Assembly: GCA_050303435.1 (NCBI GenBank) | Contig: JBNLBT010000085.1 | Location: forward strand, 1 to 14,243 | Reading direction: 5' to 3' | DNA from: Marinicellaceae bacterium | Lineage (GTDB): Bacteria > Pseudomonadota > Gammaproteobacteria > Xanthomonadales > Marinicellaceae | DNA length: 14,243 nucleotides | Shown here: piece after piece, positions 2,633 to 14,076 of the stretch | How the letters are laid out: each line of letters begins with the position of its first letter | How positions within the stretch are numbered: position 1 is the stretch's first letter | The notes under the pieces: model-generated | Databases searched by the model: none | The model's input: the letters and a program-made list of their open reading frames with translations, nothing else | What the model was told of the DNA's origin: nothing | Translations under genes and position numbers: made by a program

Positions 2633-3699
2633 ATTCCACCGCGCGCAACCACCGCAATTTCTGGCTGCTGAACGCCGCCGGGTGGGCCGTGTACCTGAGC
2701 ATCAGCGGGGTGTTTTTCGCCGCCATGAGCGGACAGATGAACCGCAACACCGCGCTGATCCAGGCACTGGCCTTTGCCTTGCTGGTGCCGGTCACCGGCG
2801 CCCTTCGGGCCCTGATCAAGGCGCGCGGCTGGGTCAACACCCTGGGTCGCCCCGGCGTCATTCTGGGTTTGTTGGGTTTGACGCTGCTGCTCTCGCTGGC
2901 GGTGCAATTCAGCGTGTCGCTGTTCATGATGTATGGCCTGGGGATGATGAACTGGTCGACGTATTCGGTGCCGGTGCTGGCGATGACCGTGGCGCAGACC
3001 TGGTTCATGCTGGTGGCCTGGCTGCTGTTGTATTTTGCCATCATCCACCGGCGCAACGCGCACCGCCAGGCGCTGGAGAAATGGCAGGCCGAAAGCGCTT
3101 TAAAAGCCGCCGAGTTGCACGCCCTGAAAGCGCAGCTGGACCCGCATTTCATCTTCAACTGCCTGAACAATCTGCGCGCGCTGGTGACCGAAGACGTGGA
3201 CCGCACGCGGCAGATGATCACGCATCTGTCGGAAATTCTCAAGTACACCCTGCACCACAACCGTCGGGAAAAAGTCACCCTGGGTGAGGAAATGGATCAC
3301 GTGGCCAACTACCTGGCCCTGCAGTCGCTGCACCTGGAGGCGCGCTTGCAGACTGCTGTGCAGGTGCCGCAGGCTTTGCGCAGCGCGCAGGTGCCGCCGC
3401 TGAGCGTGCAGTTGCTGGTGGAAAACGCCATCAAGCACGGCATCATGCATCGACCCGGCGGCGGTGAGGTGTCGATTGCGGCCAGCGCCGCACACGGTCA
3501 ACTGAGCGTGCAGGTGCGCAACCCCGGGGATTTGCAAAAGCACACCGCCGGCCATGGCATCGGTCTGAACAACCTGCGGGAACGGCTGGCGCTGCTGTGG
3601 CCGCACAACGCCGCATTGCATTTGCGTGAAGAGCGCGGCGCGGTGGTGGCAGATTTGCGGTTGCCACTGGAGACTGAAGGAGAACCCCGGCATGAATGA
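2629..3699 (+). CDS. Membrane sensor histidine kinase of the LytS/YehU (His_kinase PF06580-type) family
   Basis: Four to five N-terminal TM helices. The phospho-acceptor region ELHALKAQLDPHFIFNCLNNLRALV is the His_kinase (LytS-type) motif. An HATPase region (LLVENAIKHG..GHGIGLNNLRERL) is present. The GTG start overlaps the hydrolase stop. Confidence 0.75.
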   Translation: MNSTARNHRNFWLLNAAGWAVYLSISGVFFAAMSGQMNRNTALIQALAFALLVPVTGALRALIKARGWVNTLGRPGVILGLLGLTLLLSLAVQFSVSLFMMYGLGMMNWSTYSVPVLAMTVAQTWFMLVAWLLLYFAIIHRRNAHRQALEKWQAESALKAAELHALKAQLDPHFIFNCLNNLRALVTEDVDRTRQMITHLSEILKYTLHHNRREKVTLGEEMDHVANYLALQSLHLEARLQTAVQVPQALRSAQVPPLSVQLLVENAIKHGIMHRPGGGEVSIAASAAHGQLSVQVRNPGDLQKHTAGHGIGLNNLRERLALLWPHNAALHLREERGAVVADLRLPLETEGEPRHE

Positions 3700-4411
3700 A
3701 CACCCGATCACCGCCCTGGTGGTGGACGACGCGCGGCTGGCGCGCAAAGAACTTTTGCATCTGCTCAAGGCGCAGCCGGAAATCCATGCGCTGGGTGAGG
3801 CCGAATCGGCCGCGCAGGCGCGCGAATTGATCGCCGAACACGCGCCCGATGTGTTGTTTCTCGACATTCAAATGCCGGGAGAGGATGGCTTTGAACTGCT
3901 TGAGTCGCTGGATCACGCGCCGCAGGTGATTTTCACCACCGCCTACGATCAATACGCCATTCGCGCGTTTGAGCACAACGCCCTGGATTACCTGCAGAAA
4001 CCGGTCGATCCGGCGGCGCTGGCGCGGGCCATTAAACGCTTGGCCACGCGCGTGAAACCCGCAGAAGCATCGCGCAACGCGGCCCACCCGCGCCGCGTGT
4101 TTGTCAAGGACGGTGAGGCCTGCTGGTTTGTGCCGGTGGAACGCATCCGCCTGCTGGAAGTGGACGGGCATTACACCACGCTGCATTTCGATGACGCCGC
4201 GCCGATGATCGCCAAGACACTGAATCAACTGGAAAGCCGCCTGGACCCGGCGCTGTTTTTCCGCGCCAACCGCAATCAAATGATCAACCTTCAGCACATC
4301 GAAGACGTGCAGCCATGGGTGCAGGGCGTGCGCGTGCGGCTGAGCGACGGTCGCTGGGTGGAACTGTCACGGCGCCAGAGCCAGGCTTTCCGGGCGCGCA
4401 TGAGCCTGTGA
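3692..4411 (+). CDS. LytTR-family (LytR/AlgR-type) response regulator
   Basis: Receiver domain ALVVDDARLARKEL...VLFLDIQMPGEDGFELL, plus a C-terminal LytTR DNA-binding domain (FVKDGEACWFVPVERIRLLEVDGHYTTLHF...FFRANRNQMINLQHI). The ATG overlaps the kinase stop (ATGA). GAAGGAG RBS is upstream. Confidence 0.8.
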   Translation: MNEHPITALVVDDARLARKELLHLLKAQPEIHALGEAESAAQARELIAEHAPDVLFLDIQMPGEDGFELLESLDHAPQVIFTTAYDQYAIRAFEHNALDYLQKPVDPAALARAIKRLATRVKPAEASRNAAHPRRVFVKDGEACWFVPVERIRLLEVDGHYTTLHFDDAAPMIAKTLNQLESRLDPALFFRANRNQMINLQHIEDVQPWVQGVRVRLSDGRWVELSRRQSQAFRARMSL

Positions 4412-4419
4412 ACGGGCAT

Positions 4420-4472
4420 TTGTTAAAAAAACGTTAAAATTTGCTTGACATGCTTCGAGCGGCGGTTAAAAT
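4420..4472 (+). promoter_or_regulatory. Near-consensus sigma70 promoter (TTGACA-16 nt-TAAAAT) with an A/T-rich UP region and GTTAAAA(T) direct repeats
   Basis: TTGACA at 4445-4450, TAAAAT at 4467-4472. Repeats GTTAAAA at 4421-4427 and 4432-4438, 11 bp apart, and again at 4464-4470 overlapping the -10. Confidence 0.6.
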
Positions 4473-4478
4473 GCGTCG

Positions 4479-4699
4479 CTTATTTGAAATCACACCGCGC
4501 CACAGGCGGCGGTCAACATCAGGAACAACAACGTGAATAAAGGCAGATACAACAATCAGATGATACAGCGGTCACCGCACGCGGTGCTGCCGTTTCATTG
4601 CATGATTTAATGCCTTTCTTCAGCGAAAGGCATGCATGGCCTTTCGCTTCTCTCTGCTTCGCAGGAAACCCCGTCAGGCCACGCCGACGGGGTTTTTTT
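4479..4699 (+). ncRNA. Candidate ~220-nt small RNA or leader transcript, running from the strong promoter to a strong Rho-independent terminator; contains a 25-codon small ORF
   Basis: Bounded by the promoter and the terminator. Internal 9-bp hairpin GCGAAAGGC-ATGCATG-GCCTTTCGC at ~4623-4647. Small ORF GTG 4533..TAA 4610 (MNKGRYNNQMIQRSPHAVLPFHCMI) with AGGAA 8 nt upstream. Confidence 0.35.
4669..4699 (+). terminator. Rho-independent terminator
   Basis: CCCCGTC-aGGCcacGCC-GACGGGG stem followed by TTTTTTTATTTT. Confidence 0.8.
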
Positions 4700-4804
4700 A
4701 TTTTCCTAAACCCCGTTTTAAAGAATTGCTGATCCTCATGGCGTCGTCTCTGTACGGCGACCCGGTGCCCCCGACGCTGTCGGTGTGCATGCCGGATCAG
4801 ACAA

Positions 4805-4878
4805 TGCTGGATAGCTCAGTTGGTTGGAGCAACCCATTCAGATTGGGTCGGTCGAGGGTTCGATTCCCTCTCCAGCTC
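4805..4878 (+). tRNA. tRNA-like gene with a class-I cloverleaf and predicted anticodon CAG at 4839-4841; its isotype is anomalous because a CAG anticodon normally implies a class-II Leu tRNA
   Basis: Manual fold: acceptor TGCTGGA/TCCAGCT (6 bp plus a U1:U72 mismatch); U8 A9; D-arm GCTC-AGTTGGTTG-GAGC (Met-elongator-like); anticodon stem ACCCA/TGGGT with loop TTCAGAT; 5-nt variable loop CGGTC; T-arm GAGGG-TTCGATT-CCCTC; discriminator C; no encoded CCA. Confidence 0.5.
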
Positions 4879-4944
4879 TGAAGCTCAATGGTGGAGCAGG
4901 TGAATTTACTCATCGGGTTGCAGGTTCGATTCCTGTCAGAGCAC
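4874..4944 (+). pseudogene. Second, degenerate tRNA-like cloverleaf that overlaps the 3' end of the first by 5 nt (probable tRNA pseudogene or duplication relic)
   Basis: Acceptor AGCTCTG/CAGAGCA (6 bp plus an A1:A72 mismatch); D-arm GCTC-AATGGTG-GAGC; anticodon stem GGTGA/TCATC with a non-canonical 6-nt loop ATTTAC; T-arm GCAGG-TTCGATT-CCTGT. It repeats the TTCGATTCC T-loop of the first element. Confidence 0.3.
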
Positions 4945-5188
4945 TTCGATCTGTCCTTTTACGACAGATGGCGAAGCCATCAGGAACGCAAGTTCCCATC
5001 CAGTAAAAGACGTGCAAGGGTCTTAAAACATTGCAACCGACCTCGGTGCAGCGGCGCAGGCAGGCGCCATGAATGTCACCCGGACGTGTCGGCACAACGA
5101 CCGCAACGCTTCAATCCATGCAATGGGCATGGTTTCTGTGTGTGGCTCGGCCAATGACGGCTGGCGCGGGTTTGCCCGCGCGCCGTGG

Positions 5189-5255
5189 GGTGTGCAGCGC
5201 TGCGAGACGCAGGGCGTGTGATTCGACAGGGCGGTCGAATCGCAGCGGGCACACC
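5189..5255. repeat. Long imperfect inverted repeat (composite hairpin) in the intergenic region, preceded by the GC hairpin GGCGCGGG-tttg-CCCGCGC (5163-5184)
   Basis: Inner perfect stem GATTCGAC-agggcg-GTCGAATC (5220-5241). Outer arms GGTGTGCAGCGCTGC and GCAGCGGGCACACC are near-complementary. Confidence 0.5.
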
Positions 5256-5521
5256 ACACCCGGCTTGATTCCGAGACTCCCGCGTTGTGGTCGTGAGGCG
5301 GTTTTTTTAATTTGAGATGCAGGCGATCAAAGGGATCGCATGCATCGGGCGTTGGCGGGATGGCCCGCGAACGCTGCAGGCAGGTGGCGTGGAGGTAATC
5401 AATGAGGCGGGCGCGTGCGTTGCATGCGCCCATTTTAGAACGTATTTAAACAATGCAAATTCAATGAGAATAACTTAGCAAAGGCGCCGATGCCAGGCAT
5501 GGGTGCCACAGGAGAAGACCG

Positions 5522-6655
5522 ATGACTATCAGAAAAAGAATCGTGATTGCAGAAAACGAACGCGGCCTGGTGTTTCGAGACCGGCAGTTTGTGGCGTGCC
5601 TGAAACCCGGCGTCGAATATTTTTGGGATCCGCGCAATCGCATCCAGGTGCGGGTGTTTGATGTCACCCGTGCGGAAGTGAACGATGCGAATGTGTTGAA
5701 CTGGCTGAAAGGCCGTGCCGATTTGATTGGCGTGTACTTTGATGAAGTGCGCACCAATGAAAATCAGGTGGCGTTGATTCGCTGCGATGGGCAGTTCATC
5801 GATTTGCTGGCACCGCAGTCGCGCAAAGTGTACTGGTCAGAACCGCTGTGCGTTGAGGCTGAGATCATCGACATCGCCGCGCAACCGCGCATCGATGCGG
5901 CCACCGTGCGCGTGTTGCGCAAAGCCCTGGCCAAAGGCGTGCTGGGGCAGGGCGTGCTGGTCAAGCAGATCAACAGCCAGTGCGTGGGTCTGTTGTCGAT
6001 CGACGGCGTGCACAGCGAAGTGTTGCCGGCTGGGACACACGCCTACTGGCGCTTCAACCGGGCCATCGACATCGTCGAGGTTGACACCCGCGTGCAGAAC
6101 ATGGAAATCAGTGGCCAGGAAATCCTGACGCGCGATAAAGTGTCTCTGCGGGTGAATTTGTCTGCGGCATTTCGCATCAGCGATGCCTTGGCGATGGTGC
6201 AGCAATTGTCCGACAGCAAGGCGTTTTTGTACACCGAATTACAACTGGCTGTGCGCAAAGCCATCGGCGGCAAAAACCTGGACGCCCTGTTGGCGGACAA
6301 ATCAGCAATCGACACTCAGGTGTGTGCCTGGGTGCGCAAGTCTCTGGACGGTCTGGGCTTGCAATTGCTGGATGTGGGCCTGAAAGACGTCATCTTACCC
6401 GGTGACATGAAAGCCATTTTGAATCAGGTGGTGGAGGCGGAAAAAGCCGCCAAAGCCAACGTCATCAAACGGCGTGAGGAAACCGCGGCCACACGCTCTT
6501 TGCTGAACACCGCGAAGTTGATGGACCAGTCCCCGACTTTGCGGCGTCTGAAAGAACTGGAGACTTTGGAAAAAGTCTCTGACAAAGTGGCGTCCATGAC
6601 CGTGTTTGGCGGGATCGAATCCCTGTTGCAGGATGTGATCAAAGTGCGTCAATGA
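5522..6655 (+). CDS. SPFH/band-7 (slipin/stomatin-like) domain protein with a ~190-aa N-terminal extension of unknown function
   Basis: C-terminal half (ISGQEILTRDKVSLRVNLSAAFRI...ILNQVVEAEKAAKANVIKRREETAATR) is a typical SPFH domain with a coiled-coil tail. ACAGGAGAAG RBS is upstream of ATG 5522. No N-terminal TM helix was seen. Confidence 0.7.
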   Translation: MTIRKRIVIAENERGLVFRDRQFVACLKPGVEYFWDPRNRIQVRVFDVTRAEVNDANVLNWLKGRADLIGVYFDEVRTNENQVALIRCDGQFIDLLAPQSRKVYWSEPLCVEAEIIDIAAQPRIDAATVRVLRKALAKGVLGQGVLVKQINSQCVGLLSIDGVHSEVLPAGTHAYWRFNRAIDIVEVDTRVQNMEISGQEILTRDKVSLRVNLSAAFRISDALAMVQQLSDSKAFLYTELQLAVRKAIGGKNLDALLADKSAIDTQVCAWVRKSLDGLGLQLLDVGLKDVILPGDMKAILNQVVEAEKAAKANVIKRREETAATRSLLNTAKLMDQSPTLRRLKELETLEKVSDKVASMTVFGGIESLLQDVIKVRQ

Positions 6656-9030: not shown

Positions 9031-11523
9031 TTATTCAGAATCGTTGACTGCCGTCTCGATCGGGGCCATGCGGTGTTGCAGCAGCAGGTCATTGAGCTCC
9101 CTGGAGTTGACCCCGTGCGCGCGCAGTTTGTCCAGCCACGGGTGGGCCTGGTCGATGTGGCCGGTGTGCAGCAGGGCGGTGGCCATGGTCAGTACGTAGT
9201 AAATGCTGTCGGAGGATTTTTCCACCACCGGACGGATCGCTTCAAGCGCCAGCAGCCGCTTGCTGCGCGCGGCGTCGTGCAGGCCCAGTCCGGCGTCGAT
9301 GTTGGCGGCTTGCATCAGGTCCATGCTGTAGTCATTGGCCGCCGAGTCGTTGCCCGGATCCAGGGCCACCAGATCGGCGGATATGGCCAGGCTCTTGCCG
9401 CTGTATTCACGCGCCAGGGGCACGTCGTCGGCGGCCAGCAGGACTTCGGTCATGAGATTGTATGAATAGGCCAGTTCGCGTTTGAAATTGCGGTTTTCCG
9501 GTGACCGCAGGCCCAGGCGTTGCCCCATTTCGATGGCTTTGTCCAGCGCCTCGCGGGCGCCGGCATGATCGTCCTGTTCGAGCAGAAAAAAAGCCATGTT
9601 GTTGTGCAGCACGCGCAGGTTGTTGTGCAAATCAATGCGTGTGTTCTGCAAGTCCACCGCCTGCTCGCCGATGCGCAGCGCGGTGCGCAGGGCATCAAGG
9701 CCCAGCGACAACGTGCCGTAATCCAGCTGATACCAGGCCATCGCCTGGTGCGATTGACTCAGGTATTTGTGCCAGTTGTGCACGTCGTCCGGTTTGCGCT
9801 GCAGGTTGGCTTGACTCAATTCAATCGATTCTTCAATGAAGCGCAGCGCCTGTTCGCCGGAAGCGTTTTCCAGGTGGTGCCAGGCCAGCAGGTTCAGTGT
9901 TTCCCACAAATTAAAGGCGTTGTCCGCCGGGGCCATGGCGCGCGCGTTGGCCAGCGCCGTGTGCAATTCCGCTTCGGCTTCGTCCAGGCGATTCTGCTGC
10001 GTTAATATGGTGCTCAACAAGGCGCCGATTTTGGCCAGTTTGCCCAGACGCAGGGCGCGGTATTCGGGGGCGTCGCGCAGATGATCCAGGCTGGCGCGCC
10101 CGGCCAGCAGCGCCTGTTGCGCGTCCTGGTGCAGTTTCAGATCCATCAGGACGCGGGCGATCTGCACGTAGTTCTGTGCCTTGTGCCAGTGAAATTGCGG
10201 GTCGTCGACGCGGCCTTCGAATTGGCGCAGATGCGCCAGAGACTGTTCGGTGATGTCCAGCAGCAGATCGGTCTTGCCCATGTTGTCGAGTTTTTCATAC
10301 AGGTTTTGCAGCATGAAATTGAGCAGCCCGTCGGAGGCATTGCGGGCCTGCTCGGCGCGGATTTTCTGCTGGCGGATGTCGTGGGTGTATTTCAACGAGA
10401 AGCCGATGGCGGTCGCACACAACAGCAGGGCCACGGCGGTCAGGCCTTTGTGTCGGCGAATGCTCTTGCCCAGCACGTGACCGATGCGGTTGCTCTTCTC
10501 CGCGATCGGCAGGCCATGCATCAGGCTGTACAGGTCGTTTTTCAGGGCCGTGATGCTGGCGTAGCGCCGCTCCACGCGCCGCTGCAGGCACAATTCAATC
10601 ACCCGGTGCACATCGGCGGGCAGCGCGCGGGCAAATTCCTCATCGGCGTGAAACGGGTGGCGCGCCGGCGATTCAGCGCACACATCGGTGAGGGCCTGTT
10701 GCTGCAGGCCTTTGAGCAGCAGGTACAGCATCGCGCCGCAGGCGTAGACGTCCACGCGCGCGTCGATGGCCTGCCCCTGCAGTTGTTCCGGGGCCATGAA
10801 ACCCGGGGTGCCGAACGCGGCATTCACCGGGTGTTCCTGCCAGCGCTGTGGATTGACCGAGATGCCAAAATCGACCAGCACCGGCGTGACGATGCCGTGG
10901 CGGTGTTCCACCAGGATGTTGCCGGGTTTGATGTCCATGTGCACGATGTGGTGCTCGTGGATGTACTCCAGCGCTTCACAGATTTTCAACATCAGCGCCA
11001 GCACTTCGTTGCGTGTGCACGGCTGTGTTTTGACGTGGGCATCCAGTGTCGGGCCGTCGATGTATTCCAGGGCCAGCCACGGCCGCCCGTCCTCGCTGTG
11101 GCCGGCGTCCAGGATGGGCACAATGTACGGGTGGCGCAGGTCCGCCAGAATCTGCATTTCCTGCAGGAACTGCTGGCGGGAAAAATGCTGCCCGCTGTGC
11201 GCGTGCAGAAATTTGATCACCACGGTTTTCTGATACAGACCGTCGGCGCGTTTGGCCAGATAAATCTCGCTTTGACCGCCTTCGGCGATTTTTTCCAGCA
11301 AGCGGTAGCGTTGCAAATCGGCGGCCTGAATGGTTGGGGGTTGGTCAAAAACGTTGTGCAACAATTGGTCCAGTTGCTGGCCGATTTGCGCTTGAATCAG
11401 GGGCCGGTCAGCGGCCATCAGGCCGTCGGCCTTGAGCGCGCGCATCAGTTCTTCGCCGTGCAACTGGGGATTGGATTCGATGAAGGCCTGAATTTTATCC
11501 CAGTCTTCGAACGGCTCACTCAT
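9031..11523 (-). CDS. Membrane Hanks-type serine/threonine protein kinase with a single TM helix and a ~430-aa TPR-like C-terminal (periplasmic) sensor domain
   Basis: Kinase motifs VVIKFL (the ATP lysine), HHIVHMDIKPGNILV (catalytic loop), VDFGIS (DFG) and GTPGFMAPEQ (APE). TM helix LTAVALLLCATAIGFSL. Repetitive helical C-terminus. The start ATG overlaps the sigma stop (ATGA). Confidence 0.8.
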   Translation of the reverse strand: MSEPFEDWDKIQAFIESNPQLHGEELMRALKADGLMAADRPLIQAQIGQQLDQLLHNVFDQPPTIQAADLQRYRLLEKIAEGGQSEIYLAKRADGLYQKTVVIKFLHAHSGQHFSRQQFLQEMQILADLRHPYIVPILDAGHSEDGRPWLALEYIDGPTLDAHVKTQPCTRNEVLALMLKICEALEYIHEHHIVHMDIKPGNILVEHRHGIVTPVLVDFGISVNPQRWQEHPVNAAFGTPGFMAPEQLQGQAIDARVDVYACGAMLYLLLKGLQQQALTDVCAESPARHPFHADEEFARALPADVHRVIELCLQRRVERRYASITALKNDLYSLMHGLPIAEKSNRIGHVLGKSIRRHKGLTAVALLLCATAIGFSLKYTHDIRQQKIRAEQARNASDGLLNFMLQNLYEKLDNMGKTDLLLDITEQSLAHLRQFEGRVDDPQFHWHKAQNYVQIARVLMDLKLHQDAQQALLAGRASLDHLRDAPEYRALRLGKLAKIGALLSTILTQQNRLDEAEAELHTALANARAMAPADNAFNLWETLNLLAWHHLENASGEQALRFIEESIELSQANLQRKPDDVHNWHKYLSQSHQAMAWYQLDYGTLSLGLDALRTALRIGEQAVDLQNTRIDLHNNLRVLHNNMAFFLLEQDDHAGAREALDKAIEMGQRLGLRSPENRNFKRELAYSYNLMTEVLLAADDVPLAREYSGKSLAISADLVALDPGNDSAANDYSMDLMQAANIDAGLGLHDAARSKRLLALEAIRPVVEKSSDSIYYVLTMATALLHTGHIDQAHPWLDKLRAHGVNSRELNDLLLQHRMAPIETAVNDSE

Positions 11524-12065
11524 GTCTGCATGCGGCTGGACAGCATCATCAGCGCGCTGTTCCAGTCGCGGTCGATGGTGCGCACATTGACCGCCAGAAG
11601 TTCGGCTATTTCACGGTTGCTCATGCCGCCGAAAAAGCGGTAGACAAACACCTCTTCCAGCCGCGCCGAGTAGCGACTGAGTCGCTGCAGATTGTCTTCC
11701 AGGTCGATCAGCCAGTCGACCTGATTGTGCAGTCCCGGCGGTTCGGCCGCGTTGTCGGTCACGGTTTGTTCGTTCAGCACCGGTTTCAGGCGCCTGGATT
11801 CGTTGATCAGAATGTGCCGCATCGCCAGCGCCGAAACGGCGAAAAAGTGGTTGCGGTTCTGGTAGGTCTTGTCCTGCTGTTTCATTTTCAGCCAGGCTTC
11901 ATTGACCAGCATGGTGGTGTTGATCTGGTGGTTGTGAATTTTCAGCTTTTGCGATTTGGCAATTTTTTTCAGGTGGGCATACACGCGCTCAAAGTCGTAG
12001 TTTTCGTCCAGTTGAAAACCGACGGTGCGTTTGTTGATCAATCGCGTGATGGGAATGGATTCCAT
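11520..12065 (-). CDS. ECF-type sigma-70 family sigma factor lacking the region-2 DAED acidic motif (NTTM instead); the type associated with a Ser/Thr kinase
   Basis: Region 2 (FERVYAHLKKIAKSQ...INTTMLVNEAWLKM) and a region-4 HTH (GGMSNREIAELLAVNVRTIDRDWNSA) are present. Thr50/Thr51 occupy the positions of the usual D/E residues. It is translationally coupled to the downstream kinase. Confidence 0.7.
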   Translation of the reverse strand: MESIPITRLINKRTVGFQLDENYDFERVYAHLKKIAKSQKLKIHNHQINTTMLVNEAWLKMKQQDKTYQNRNHFFAVSALAMRHILINESRRLKPVLNEQTVTDNAAEPPGLHNQVDWLIDLEDNLQRLSRYSARLEEVFVYRFFGGMSNREIAELLAVNVRTIDRDWNSALMMLSSRMQT

Positions 12066-12099
12066 GAAATGCTGCCCGCTGCTTGTGCCTCTGTTTTGA

Positions 12100-12148
12100 A
12101 CTATAGCACAAATCCTGCGCCGAAAAACAGATTGACATGAGGGTCAAT
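12100..12148 (-). promoter_or_regulatory. Putative promoter of the sigma gene (extended -10 TGcTATAGT on the - strand) with an upstream palindrome ATTGAC-N6-GTCAAT
   Basis: On the - strand, ...TGTGCTATAGTtcaaaacagaggcac...ATG. The palindrome sits at + strand 12131-12148. No convincing -35 was found. Confidence 0.35.
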
Positions 12149-12222
12149 GGGTGGGCGCGAAAATTTGTGAGGCACGCCTCAATTTCCGCAGGCAATGCAC
12201 AACAAGCGATCTCGGCCTGCGG

Positions 12223-14076
12223 TCAATACAGCCGTTCTCCGGCCGCTTTGATATCCTGGCCGACGTCACCCAGTGAATCGATGTCGACCAGTATGAAGTG
12301 CCCGTCAAAATCAATGCCGTGATCTTCGGGTACCGCCTGATCGATGTCGCTGTCAGCTTGCATCAAACACAAGAGAATCACAAACGGCACGTCCGCCGGC
12401 TGTTTCAATTGTTTGCTGGCCAGCCAAACCTTGCGGATGGATTGCAATTTTTGCAGAGAGGCGCGCAATCGCGCTTTGGCCGCGTCACTGATCTCGGCCG
12501 GCAAAAAAACCGAATTTTCATTCAGATCGTGCATGTCTCGATACAAAGCCTGATGCCGGTCGTGCTGTGCTTCCAGCTTGCGCAAGACGGTTTCAGCTTT
12601 TGCCGTTTCGCCGCGCAGCAGGTGGTGGCGGTACAAGTCTTCACCGGCCTGTTGCAGGGGGTGCGGACTGTGCAGCACACGCATCAACAGCGCCTCGCCG
12701 CGTTCCGGTGCATCCTGCAGCAAACTGGACCCCAGGTAATACATGGCAAAGGTGTTGTCTGGCTCAATGGCCAGCATGGCTTCAAGGGTGGGCCGTGCGT
12801 GCTGAGCACCGTGCAGATTGATTTCAATTTCAGCCCGTTCTCCCAGGCTGTCCATATCGTCTGCCGGATTGGCGTTGAGTTCCGCCAGACGGGCCCGGGC
12901 GCTTTGCGCGTATTGGTGCACTTCCTGCCAGCCTTTTTGGTTTTCTTCAGCCCATTGCCGGTCAAAGTAGTCCAGACAATCGTCCAGTGAGTCCGACAGC
13001 CAGACGAGAGCCGCACTGGGTTCATTCAATGGGCGCCAGACCGGCTCAACCCGCAAGGCCTGAAGCCGGTCCTTCAGTGCAGGGTGCGTGTCGCTGTAGC
13101 CGGTGGCCAAATTCAAGGCTTGTTGCAATGCCAGCTCGGCCTGAGCTGTGTCCAGCGAATGTGAGGCCAGGTGCTGCACCAGTTCATGGCCCACACGGCG
13201 ATTGATTTCAGCGTGCGTCTGCGCGGTCTTTTTCAAGGGTTGCCAGAACGTCTCATCGACAAAATGGCTGTGCAGTTCCGTCACAATCAATGCGACTCCC
13301 AGGTCTTCGGCGGACGTCAGCTGGGCAGCCACTGCGTCGGCTTCGAATTCATTGGCGCGCGCGAGCACAAATGAATACGCATTGAAATGCGGTGCGTAGC
13401 GATTAAAAAACGCACCCAGTAACCAGCGGGCAGACCCGTTGCTTTGATTGACCGCGTGCATGATGCGCATCCAGGTCATTCGCAGTCGGTAGACCCATGC
13501 ATTGAACTTGGCGTGGTCACCGCGCAAGTGCCCCATTTCATGCGCCACCACGGCCAATGCCTGTTGCGGATTCAGGCTGGCCAGCAACTGAACCCCCAGA
13601 ATAAGGGTGTTTCTGTGCCAGCCGAAAATGCCCAGGCGCGGCAGCTGCTGGATGGCCGCATTCATCTCGAAATTCAGCTTGACCTGGTGGATCGGCGGGG
13701 TGTGCAGGCGCCAGGCCATTTCATCGAGGTGCTCAAACAGACGGGGTGCCTGTTGACGTTGGATGATCCGGCCGGGCAGGCCCTCGAAGCGGATCATCAG
13801 GGAGCGTCCGATGACCACAATCAGGGCAACGATGAGCAGGATGAATTTACTTTTAATCAACAAAAGCAAAAATCCGTGACTGAAGATGACCAGCAATGCG
13901 GTGCCTGCGAACAGGCCCAAGGCCAGTGAAAAAAGCACAAACAGATAAGCGTAACCCAGCCAGGCAAGCCATTTCAGGCGGCGCTTGTAGGCCGCCGGGT
14001 TGCGTTCATAAACAGCGCGTGCACGCGCGGCCGTGCGCTCAAATTCTTCGCGCAGTTGGGTGCTGGATTTTGTCAT
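12223..14076 (-). CDS. Membrane-anchored M48-family zinc metallopeptidase (HEXXH) with a TPR-like C-terminal domain
   Basis: N-terminal hydrophobic helices (WLAWLGYAYLFVLFSLALGLFAGTALLVIF and FLLLLIKSKFILLIVALIVVIG). Zinc-binding motif VVAHEMGHLRGDH plus a downstream NEFEAD (a candidate third zinc ligand). Long helical C-terminus with TPR-like repeats. Confidence 0.7.
   Translation of the reverse strand: MTKSSTQLREEFERTAARARAVYERNPAAYKRRLKWLAWLGYAYLFVLFSLALGLFAGTALLVIFSHGFLLLLIKSKFILLIVALIVVIGRSLMIRFEGLPGRIIQRQQAPRLFEHLDEMAWRLHTPPIHQVKLNFEMNAAIQQLPRLGIFGWHRNTLILGVQLLASLNPQQALAVVAHEMGHLRGDHAKFNAWVYRLRMTWMRIMHAVNQSNGSARWLLGAFFNRYAPHFNAYSFVLARANEFEADAVAAQLTSAEDLGVALIVTELHSHFVDETFWQPLKKTAQTHAEINRRVGHELVQHLASHSLDTAQAELALQQALNLATGYSDTHPALKDRLQALRVEPVWRPLNEPSAALVWLSDSLDDCLDYFDRQWAEENQKGWQEVHQYAQSARARLAELNANPADDMDSLGERAEIEINLHGAQHARPTLEAMLAIEPDNTFAMYYLGSSLLQDAPERGEALLMRVLHSPHPLQQAGEDLYRHHLLRGETAKAETVLRKLEAQHDRHQALYRDMHDLNENSVFLPAEISDAAKARLRASLQKLQSIRKVWLASKQLKQPADVPFVILLCLMQADSDIDQAVPEDHGIDFDGHFILVDIDSLGDVGQDIKAAGERLY

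Follow-up and report, generated by a model that had tools for sequence, protein, structure and literature searches.

A predicted double tRNA-like RNA associated with a slipin gene in a Marinicellaceae bacterium

The abstract of a 2016 paper is reported to assign SPFH/Band-7 scaffold proteins a cognate RNA, ‘a novel tRNA-like molecule’. The b7a-tRNA (Band-7-associated tRNA-like RNA) class, predicted in 2016, is outlined in the Discussion of Wang et al. (2018), which adds that b7a-tRNA and YrlA occasionally exchange partners. YrlA (RF02553), the RNA partner of Rsr, is encoded in an rsr–yrlBA–rtcBA operon, and the model cited in the same Discussion derives it from a dimeric tRNA transcript, of which it keeps the T arm of tRNA 1 and the D arm of tRNA 2. 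In Pseudomonas aeruginosa, the SPFH protein PaFlo8 is embedded in the rtc locus (2026 survey, PMC13086221). Here we describe two abutting tRNA-like domains that precede a slipin gene, encoding a stomatin-like SPFH/Band-7 protein, in a 14,243-nucleotide (nt) contig from a Marinicellaceae bacterium (JBNLBT010000085.1 of assembly GCA_050303435.1; the whole contig is called the window below). Positions 4746–4969 of the window probably encode either a structured non-coding RNA or a structured 5′ portion of the slipin mRNA, belonging to a slipin-associated tRNA-like class. It is the downstream slipin gene that identifies the element and, as far as the class is outlined in that Discussion, we take it to be another member of the predicted b7a-tRNA class, neither a rogue tRNA nor a pseudogene.

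The original prediction had placed two cloverleaves here, and both are present. Unit 1, with its CAG triplet, 5-nt variable loop and U1 opposite U72, was called by ARAGORN as tRNA-Leu(cag), the sole gene call across the window, and matched the Rfam tRNA model RF00005 (58 bits, E = 1.4e-10 in a whole-window search) with 1:72 as its sole non-canonical pair. In its acceptor stem U4805 lies opposite U4877, GCUGGA (4806–4811) and UCCAGC (4871–4876) form six pairs, and C4878 follows. The D arm is normal, with the D loop AGUUGGUUG; the anticodon stem ACCCA/UGGGU carries the loop UUCAGAU, with CAG at 4839–4841 and both U33 and A37 present; and the T arm is canonical, with the loop UUCGAUU. Bacterial tRNA-Leu are class II, whereas the short variable loop of unit 1 gives it a class I body. 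Unit 2, with the predicted 6-nt loop and A1:A72 mismatch, was confirmed by reading the sequence and by a covariance model of related dimers; neither ARAGORN nor the Rfam tRNA model called it when the window was searched. Here A4874 lies opposite A4943, GCUCUG (4875–4880) and CAGAGC (4937–4942) form six pairs before C4944, and positions 8–9 are A8A9 in place of the usual U8. The D stem is GCUC/GAGC, the anticodon stem GGUGA/UCAUC with the loop AUUUAC (4904–4909), and the T arm GCAGG/CCUGU with the loop UUCGAUU. Both domains keep the GG of the D loop and the UUCGA of the T loop.

If both units are read as standard tRNAs, with 7-base-pair (bp) acceptor stems plus a discriminator base, they share 4874–4878 (AGCUC). 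With 5-bp stems (4807–4811/4871–4875 and 4876–4880/4937–4941) the domains instead abut exactly, and to gain a sixth pair the two stems would have to compete over G4875/C4876. The predicted 5-nt overlap and the paired 1:72 mismatches are thus a correct description of the 7-bp reading, but not real defects: they arise because a 7-bp stem plus discriminator is forced onto shorter-stemmed, abutting domains. Unit 1 encodes no CCA, has C73 and has its 3′ end buried in unit 2. Neither unit shows the 7-bp acceptor stem with a free 3′ discriminator and CCA that would let it be matured on its own like a canonical tRNA, nor the combination of a 7-nt loop with a body that matches its isotype, unit 1 joining CAG to a class I body and unit 2 having a 6-nt loop. 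The single-sequence fold energy of the element is unremarkable (z = −1.0). Three pairings that appeared in the minimum-energy fold, namely a YrlA-like closing stem (4829–4835/4915–4921), a UUCAGA/UCUGAA pairing between anticodon loop 1 and the junction, and an outer stem UGCU/AGCA, were rejected because they are not conserved.

The double cloverleaf itself is conserved. When the window was aligned with 19 slipin-linked dimers, standard pairs were formed in 96.5% of cells and 25 of the 37 pairs had compensatory changes, among them all five in acceptor stem 1 and three of the four tested in acceptor stem 2. None of 500 shuffles reached the observed values, and sliding the 3′ partners by 1–3 columns lowered pairing to 33–47%. 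Acceptor-like stems in this family have 4–6 bp, and the units lie 0–3 nt apart. A covariance model built from the 19 related dimers, with the window excluded, finds window positions 4799–4949 at full length without a single non-canonical pair (105.5 bits, E = 2.9e-33), a score to be read against the roughly 100 bits that ordinary tandem tRNA genes reach under the same model.

The anticodon-like loops vary in length and sequence. Across the family they range from 4 to 8 nt, with UUCG-type tetraloops in both units of Pseudomonas copies and pentaloops also occurring, a spread of lengths that argues against their use in decoding. Within the window’s own clade the unit 1 loop is mostly 7 nt, with CAG (relatives L286 and L263), UAG (L329, L334 and L398) or CAU, or is a 6-nt loop; the unit 2 loop is GUU- or UUU-like, relatives having AUGUUAC or CUGUUAA where the window has AUUUAC, one base shorter. 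Unlike the class I unit 1 of the window, that of some close relatives is class-II-like, its variable arm being long and its D stem having 3 bp; the body of unit 1 therefore appears unconstrained. Judged from the aligned sequences, constraint falls on the four-helix shape and on the tRNA elbow, with GG in the D loop and UUCGA in the T loop.

Relatives were found through the RNA. A permissive Rfam search had returned a sub-threshold YrlA match, which prompted scans for a T-loop lying too near a D arm. The strict genome pattern (T-loop, 12–17 nt, GCUCA, 33–40 nt, T-loop) used RNA features alone, in a one-genome-per-species collection, and its spacing is too short to fit two separate full-length tRNAs. 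It occurs at no fewer than 119 genome loci, spread over Gammaproteobacteria, Alphaproteobacteria, Bacteroidota, Firmicutes and Spirochaetes, and in 11 viral stretches. Carriers named in the records include Pseudomonas, Pseudoalteromonas, Alteromonas, Enterovibrio, Oleiagrimonas, Rhodanobacter, Stenotrophomonas, Tahibacter, Sphingomonas, Sphingobacterium, Lachnospiraceae/Ruminococcaceae, Treponema and Neisseria. Because several carriers are isolates or complete genomes (among them Pseudomonas peli, Oleiagrimonas citrea, Pseudoalteromonas spp., Stenotrophomonas and Marinicella meishanensis), an assembly artefact is excluded. Rfam searches of these loci gave generic tRNA matches only.

Neighbouring genes were counted around 115 loci among the matches listed by the strict pattern, their open reading frames (ORFs) being clustered without prior expectation of a neighbour. 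The commonest neighbour, at 80 of the 115, was a co-oriented homologue of the window’s slipin, about 385 amino acids long and lying downstream at a median distance of 269 nt. A tblastn search with the window slipin found it at 79 of the 115 loci, always downstream and co-oriented, at a median of 384 nt from T-loop 2; many of the other listed loci are truncated at the end of the locus DNA. The RNA ligase RtcB followed the slipin at 46 of the listed loci, the sigma-54 activator RtcR lay divergently upstream at 34 and the cyclase RtcA was present at 16. Of the 51 slipin-linked listed loci whose downstream DNA extended for 3.5 kb or more, 33 had RtcB and 18 had none, including the nearest relatives L329 and L334.

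The closest homologues of the window’s slipin (~53–57% identity) all have the dimer upstream. They belong to L329, L334, L250, Marinicella meishanensis L467, and L469, a 4-Mb contig, and the covariance model scores 110 to 135 bits on these nearest relatives, with 110–114 bits for those that include the isolate Marinicella meishanensis. Where the original prediction asked whether related loci carry an intact single tRNA, the nearest slipin relatives have the same dimer. Beyond the slipin gene we found no synteny between the window and its relatives, pairwise blastn of the window flanks against the relatives gave nothing significant, and the PMP-repeat proteins of the window recur weakly near L261 and L286. 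With nothing else syntenic, the RNA and the slipin gene appear to travel as one cassette.

Other searches were less productive. A first pattern (T-loop with a D-arm within 12–19 nt) was dropped as unspecific, being saturated by phage YrlA-like modules, and a search of viral contigs for two T-loops 48–58 nt apart was uninformative, returning mostly tRNAs with truncated tRNA-like pieces and collagen-like coding repeats. BLAST of a 161-nt region against phage and plasmid collections gave generic tRNA similarity only, and an exact-protein look-up with the window slipin returned no contig. A metagenome scan with the leader pattern GTYTCTGWAYRGCNNNCYGGTGC gave 102 stretches, nearly all of them chance matches in coding sequence; the real matches were only L373 (on the same contig as L250), L398/L422 and L372/L397/L405.

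Several observations on phage and other contigs were made along the way. Many phage contigs (within L002–L121, for example L033, L045 and L039) have YrlA-like modules of T arm, short hairpin, UA and D arm, sometimes in tandem, and in many others a normal tRNA has, no more than ~50 nt behind it, a second T arm left uncalled by ARAGORN. ARAGORN also called overlapping tRNA pairs in phage contigs, such as Phe/Met overlapping by 6 nt in L027 (~3430–3570) and Asn/Asn by 4 nt in L069 (~12090–12235). In L269, a metagenome-assembled genome (MAG) of Thermodesulfovibrionia, and in L348, two tRNAs with 7-bp stems share GCGC.

Conserved elements also flank the double cloverleaf (Table 1). In the window the 5′ leader reads GUCUCUGUACGGC...CCGGUGC (4762–4768), followed by the hairpin CCGAC (4771–4775)/GUCGG (4779–4783) and GCAUGCC (4787–4793), against a family consensus of CYGGUGC, a hairpin and GYRUAUGCC located ~45–65 nt before unit 1. 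Of 80 distinct regions upstream of slipin-linked loci, 40 contained CYGGUGY, compared with 4% of shuffles, and RtcR/RtcB-linked Pseudomonas and Xanthomonadales loci are among them. The leader hairpin varies by compensatory changes among relatives (CCGAC/GUCGG, CCAGU/ACUGG, CCGGU/ACCGG, UAUC/GAUA and CCAAC/GUUGG). In the metagenome loci L372, L397 and L405 the leader (GUUUCUGUACAGC...CUGGUGC, a hairpin and GUAUACC) is followed, ~95–200 nt on, by a YrlA-like module of T arm, hairpin, UA and D arm; standing before this permuted module as well, the leader appears to be common to both kinds of tRNA mimic. On the 3′ side, the first hairpin after domain 2 (counting stems of at least 4 bp) had a 7-nt loop of the anticodon-like form YU-NNN-R-N in 17 of 71 distinct slipin-linked tails, compared with 0.6% when shuffled, with loops such as CUGUUAA, CUUUCAC, CUGAUAA and CUGUAAA.

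Table 1. Features of the tRNA-like element and its surroundings in the window, with the evidence for each.
Feature	Coordinates	Strand	Evidence or detail
tRNA-like domain 1 (unit 1)	4805–4878	+	ARAGORN, Rfam tRNA, family covariance model, covariation of every helix
Domain 1 acceptor-like stem, 5–6 bp	4806/4807–4811 with 4871–4875/4876	+	
Domain 1 D arm	4814–4830		
Domain 1 anticodon-like arm	4832–4848		
Domain 1 variable loop	4849–4853		
Domain 1 T arm	4854–4870		
tRNA-like domain 2 (unit 2)	4874–4944	+	family covariance model, covariation
Domain 2 acceptor-like stem, 5–6 bp	4875/4876–4880 with 4937–4941/4942	+	
Domain 2 D arm	4883–4897		
Domain 2 anticodon-like arm	4899–4914		
Domain 2 T arm	4920–4936		
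Upstream segment	4596–4700	+	nhmmer profile; hairpins read from sequence, aligned with relatives
5′ leader motif	4746–4796	+	family-wide motif, compensatory hairpin
3′ hairpin	4949–4969	+	7-bp stem AUCUGUC/GACAGAU, 7-nt loop CUUUUAC 4956–4962
Slipin (SPFH/Band-7, stomatin-like) gene	5522–6655	+	Pfam Band_7, 3.2e-29

Further upstream, a profile of the 200–260 nt that precede the element in 6 relatives (window excluded) matched window positions 4596–4797 (nhmmer, E = 1.9e-11). This region contains a 9-bp hairpin, AUGCCUUUC (4610–4618) with GAAAGGCAU (4625–4633), and an intrinsic-terminator-like hairpin (4669–4675 with 4686–4692) followed by a U run (4693–4699). The upstream segment may be a small RNA in its own right or an attenuator that precedes the tRNA-like RNA. 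A sigma-70-like promoter site, TTGACA-16-TAAAAT, lies at 4445–4472. RtcR-linked relatives have a sigma-54 promoter (TGGCAC-N5-TYGM) ~100 nt upstream of unit 1, which implies that the RNA forms the start of the slipin–rtcB transcript there; no such promoter was found upstream of the element in the window.

Downstream, 0.6–1.4 kb of non-coding DNA separate the dimer from the slipin start codon in the nearest relatives. This stretch is conserved in blocks among Marinicella and related gammaproteobacterial genomes (L467:2146–3500, L469:2548–3500, L329, L334, L250, L286 and L261). RNAalifold, applied to a ~240-nt sub-block, predicted 62 pairs, 17 of them with compensatory changes, and Rfam gave no family match on the relatives’ stretch, which by its sequence is a candidate large structured RNA or 5′ untranslated region. 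Window positions 4985–5521 matched a profile of this stretch marginally (nhmmer, E = 0.001 and 0.09 in a 591-nt search space), and for that reason we claim no homology between the two. A short upstream ORF, AUG AGA AUA ACU UAG, lies before the slipin in the window at 5444–5458 and may encode a leader peptide; its counterparts are AUG ACU GAG UUU UAU UAA in L329, L334 and L250, and AUG ACU GAG UUU ACA UAA in L286 and L261.

The slipin gene starts 578 nt past the end of unit 2, on the same strand. Its closest SPFH homologues are 53–58% identical and, where named, are annotated ‘slipin family protein’ (in Marinicella, for example), and solved stomatin structures match it at 1.7e-18. Scanned against Pfam, the window’s 10 main ORFs include, in its 5′ part, genes for an alpha/beta hydrolase, a LytS-type histidine kinase and a LytTR response regulator (ending at 4411), the element sitting inside the 1.1-kb non-coding gap between the regulator and the slipin. 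After the slipin, on the minus strand, come genes for a DUF1801/YdeI protein, a PMP-repeat protein, a TPR-repeat Ser/Thr kinase, an ECF sigma factor and an M48 peptidase. These scans found no integrase, as the original prediction had stated, and no TROVE/Rsr (Ro60) protein. A TPR Ser/Thr kinase gene lies within a few kb of the slipin cassette both in the window (9031–11523, minus strand) and in Marinicella meishanensis (L467:7202–8134, plus strand); the proximity of the kinase and PMP-repeat genes may reflect coincidence or taxonomic relatedness. Over window positions 11520–14076, the ECF sigma factor is identical, and the M48 peptidase of the same length (617 amino acids), in GCA_050304395.1 (L001), whose 3.4-kb contig stops short of the tRNA-like locus; there are thus at least two MAGs of this organism.

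Some of what we found weighs against placing the element in a slipin-associated class with a role in RNA repair. The b7a-tRNA class is described as experimentally unvalidated in the Discussion of Wang et al. (2018), and the literature searched yielded no later report. RtcB, RtcA and RtcR were not found in the 14.2-kb contig (tblastn, with the Pfam scans in agreement), which leaves the link to RNA repair here one of analogy only, and the 18 rtcB-free loci among those listed add to this. Given the scores of tandem tRNA genes, the covariance model does not discriminate, and membership therefore rests on gene context, short abutting stems and shared flanks. Finally, the anticodon-like loops of the window’s own clade are mostly still 7 nt (CAG, UAG, CAU and GUU), so that sequence alone does not exclude decoding.

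The original prediction had offered an anticodon-mutated tRNA, a pseudogene pair left by duplication or integration, or a tRNA-like structural RNA. That unit 1, and maybe unit 2, is a working non-canonical class I tRNA whose CAG reads CUG, possibly carrying an amino acid other than leucine, as deliberate mistranslation or codon reassignment, would accord with its acceptance by ARAGORN and Rfam (58 bits), its 7-nt loop, U33, A37 and intact D and T loops, and with the recurrence of CAG (L286, L263) or UAG (L329, L334, L398) in unit 1 of relatives. Such a tRNA would have to cope with U1·U72, C73, no CCA and a 3′ end that lies inside the following domain, while homologous units have acceptor stems of 4–6 bp and arms often capped by tetraloops or pentaloops (UUCG in Pseudomonas), unit 2 has a 6-nt loop and A8, and the element is linked to a slipin gene instead of tRNA operons; we consider this extremely unlikely. 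Decay of a tRNA pseudogene pair, arising by duplication or by integration and excision of a mobile element, or an artefact of MAG assembly, is harder still to credit. The 1:72 mismatches, the 6-nt loop, the apparent overlap, the metagenomic origin of the contig and an IS30-like transposase near the relative L329 would all suit it, but the same architecture is present in isolates, all variable helices covary by compensatory changes, the flanking motifs are conserved and the window has no integrase. Covariation across many phyla, slipin linkage, loops ranging from a tetraloop to 8 nt and abutting stems of 4–6 bp thus speak against both the mutated tRNA and the pseudogene pair, and the recurrent covarying architecture together with the slipin linkage supports the third option, a tRNA-like structural RNA.

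Two further explanations keep the structural RNA but change what it is. In one, the element is a YrlA-type Y RNA that binds Ro60/Rsr, with T arm 1 and D arm 2 as the permuted module, closed by GCAACCC (4829–4835)/GGGUUGC (4915–4921). RF02553 does match 4829–4924 (27.6 bits, E ~6e-4 in a local search), with the same sub-threshold match in Marinicella; the minimum-free-energy fold contains the 7-bp closing stem; genuine modules of T arm, hairpin and D arm stand before some slipin genes; and YrlA has been noted in the literature beside Band-7 genes. The score is, however, far under the gathering score of 69, the closing stem shows no covariation (72.9% of cells pair, equalled by 103 of 500 shuffles), the segment from T arm 1 to D arm 2 is not a closed hairpin, its halves pairing with distal covarying strands, the fold energy is ordinary (z = −1.0) and the window’s 10 main ORFs include no rsr, all of which makes a Y RNA of this type very unlikely. 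A purely cis-acting leader of the slipin(–rtcBA) mRNA, serving RNase P/Z/E processing, stability or regulatory sensing with no role as a free RNA or as a protein’s partner, has a rather better though still low standing. The element is always 5′ of the slipin on the same strand and downstream of a promoter and, in the window’s clade, a partly structured non-coding stretch of 0.6–1.4 kb reaches the slipin start and a terminator-like element precedes it, but a conserved tRNA elbow and an extra anticodon-like hairpin exceed the needs of a cleavage signal. A leader of this kind overlaps with a slipin-associated tRNA-like RNA and does not exclude it.

How the slipin-associated RNA would act can be sketched by analogy. 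It may be transcribed with or just ahead of the slipin gene, and either be released from the slipin transcript or form its 5′ part. It would then fold into two L-shaped tRNA mimics and one mimic of an anticodon stem-loop and, to judge from its sequence, would be neither aminoacylated nor decoding. By analogy with the pair of Ro60 and Y RNA, it could be the partner of the slipin protein. Stomatin-like relatives form large rings or cages, and RNA and slipin together would recruit tRNA-handling or repair factors, to which the RNA would offer a tRNA-like surface; alternatively, the RNA may be a decoy for nucleases that cleave tRNAs in the anticodon loop, or a sensor of them. The stand-alone cassettes suggest that the slipin–RNA pair can function without RtcB. 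A bolder and decidedly tentative idea, which we think improbable but worth stating, is that the stand-alone cassette, running from the leader motif through both tRNA-shaped domains, the anticodon-loop mimic and a long structured non-coding stretch to the slipin, is an independent ribonucleoprotein system. An SPFH protein that forms cages or rings would there employ the double tRNA mimic as decoy, sensor or adaptor against tRNA-targeting nucleases, and the RNA would be a living form of the dimeric-tRNA intermediate from which YrlA-type Y RNAs would derive.

Annotation pipelines will label this locus tRNA-Leu(CAG), with the risk that it is over-read as a codon reassignment or a pseudogene, whereas it is better annotated as an RNA that mimics tRNA and is coupled to an SPFH protein; the puzzle of a class I tRNA-Leu(CAG) overlapping a second tRNA then dissolves. 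The alignment and covariance model could seed an RNA family defined by two short-stemmed abutting domains, the leader and the 3′ anticodon-like hairpin, with at least 119 loci. The element also supplies sequences for testing the dimeric-tRNA origin of Y RNAs and the roles of SPFH proteins in RNA-damage responses.

Set beside the b7a-tRNA class, the window element is likewise tRNA-like, by unit 1 (58 bits), by both units together (105.5 bits) and by covariation, and likewise has a Band-7/SPFH gene, the slipin, adjacent to it. In most relatives rtcB(–rtcA) follows and rtcR lies divergently before, unlike the window copy, which is a stand-alone cassette with no rtcB, rtcA or rtcR; as 18 of the 51 listed relatives also have no RtcB, we regard its absence here as a variant of context and not as grounds for exclusion. 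With YrlA the element shares the character of a tRNA mimic of RNA-repair operons beside a putative scaffold protein, and the order of T arm 1 followed by D arm 2, the arrangement of the dimeric-tRNA origin model, is still kept in the window. It differs from YrlA in retaining two full covarying cloverleaves, with no closed acceptor hairpin and no conserved Ro-binding stem, and in having no rsr, its partner protein being an SPFH and not a TROVE protein. Canonical and dimeric tRNA genes resemble it in the cloverleaf with D-loop GG and T-loop UUCGA that earns unit 1 its Rfam score, and true overlapping pairs do occur in phage contigs. It departs from them in its stems of less than 7 bp, the lack of a discriminator/CCA context, the unconstrained anticodon loops of the family and the class I shape of unit 1 with a Leu anticodon, and in being fixed beside a single protein family.

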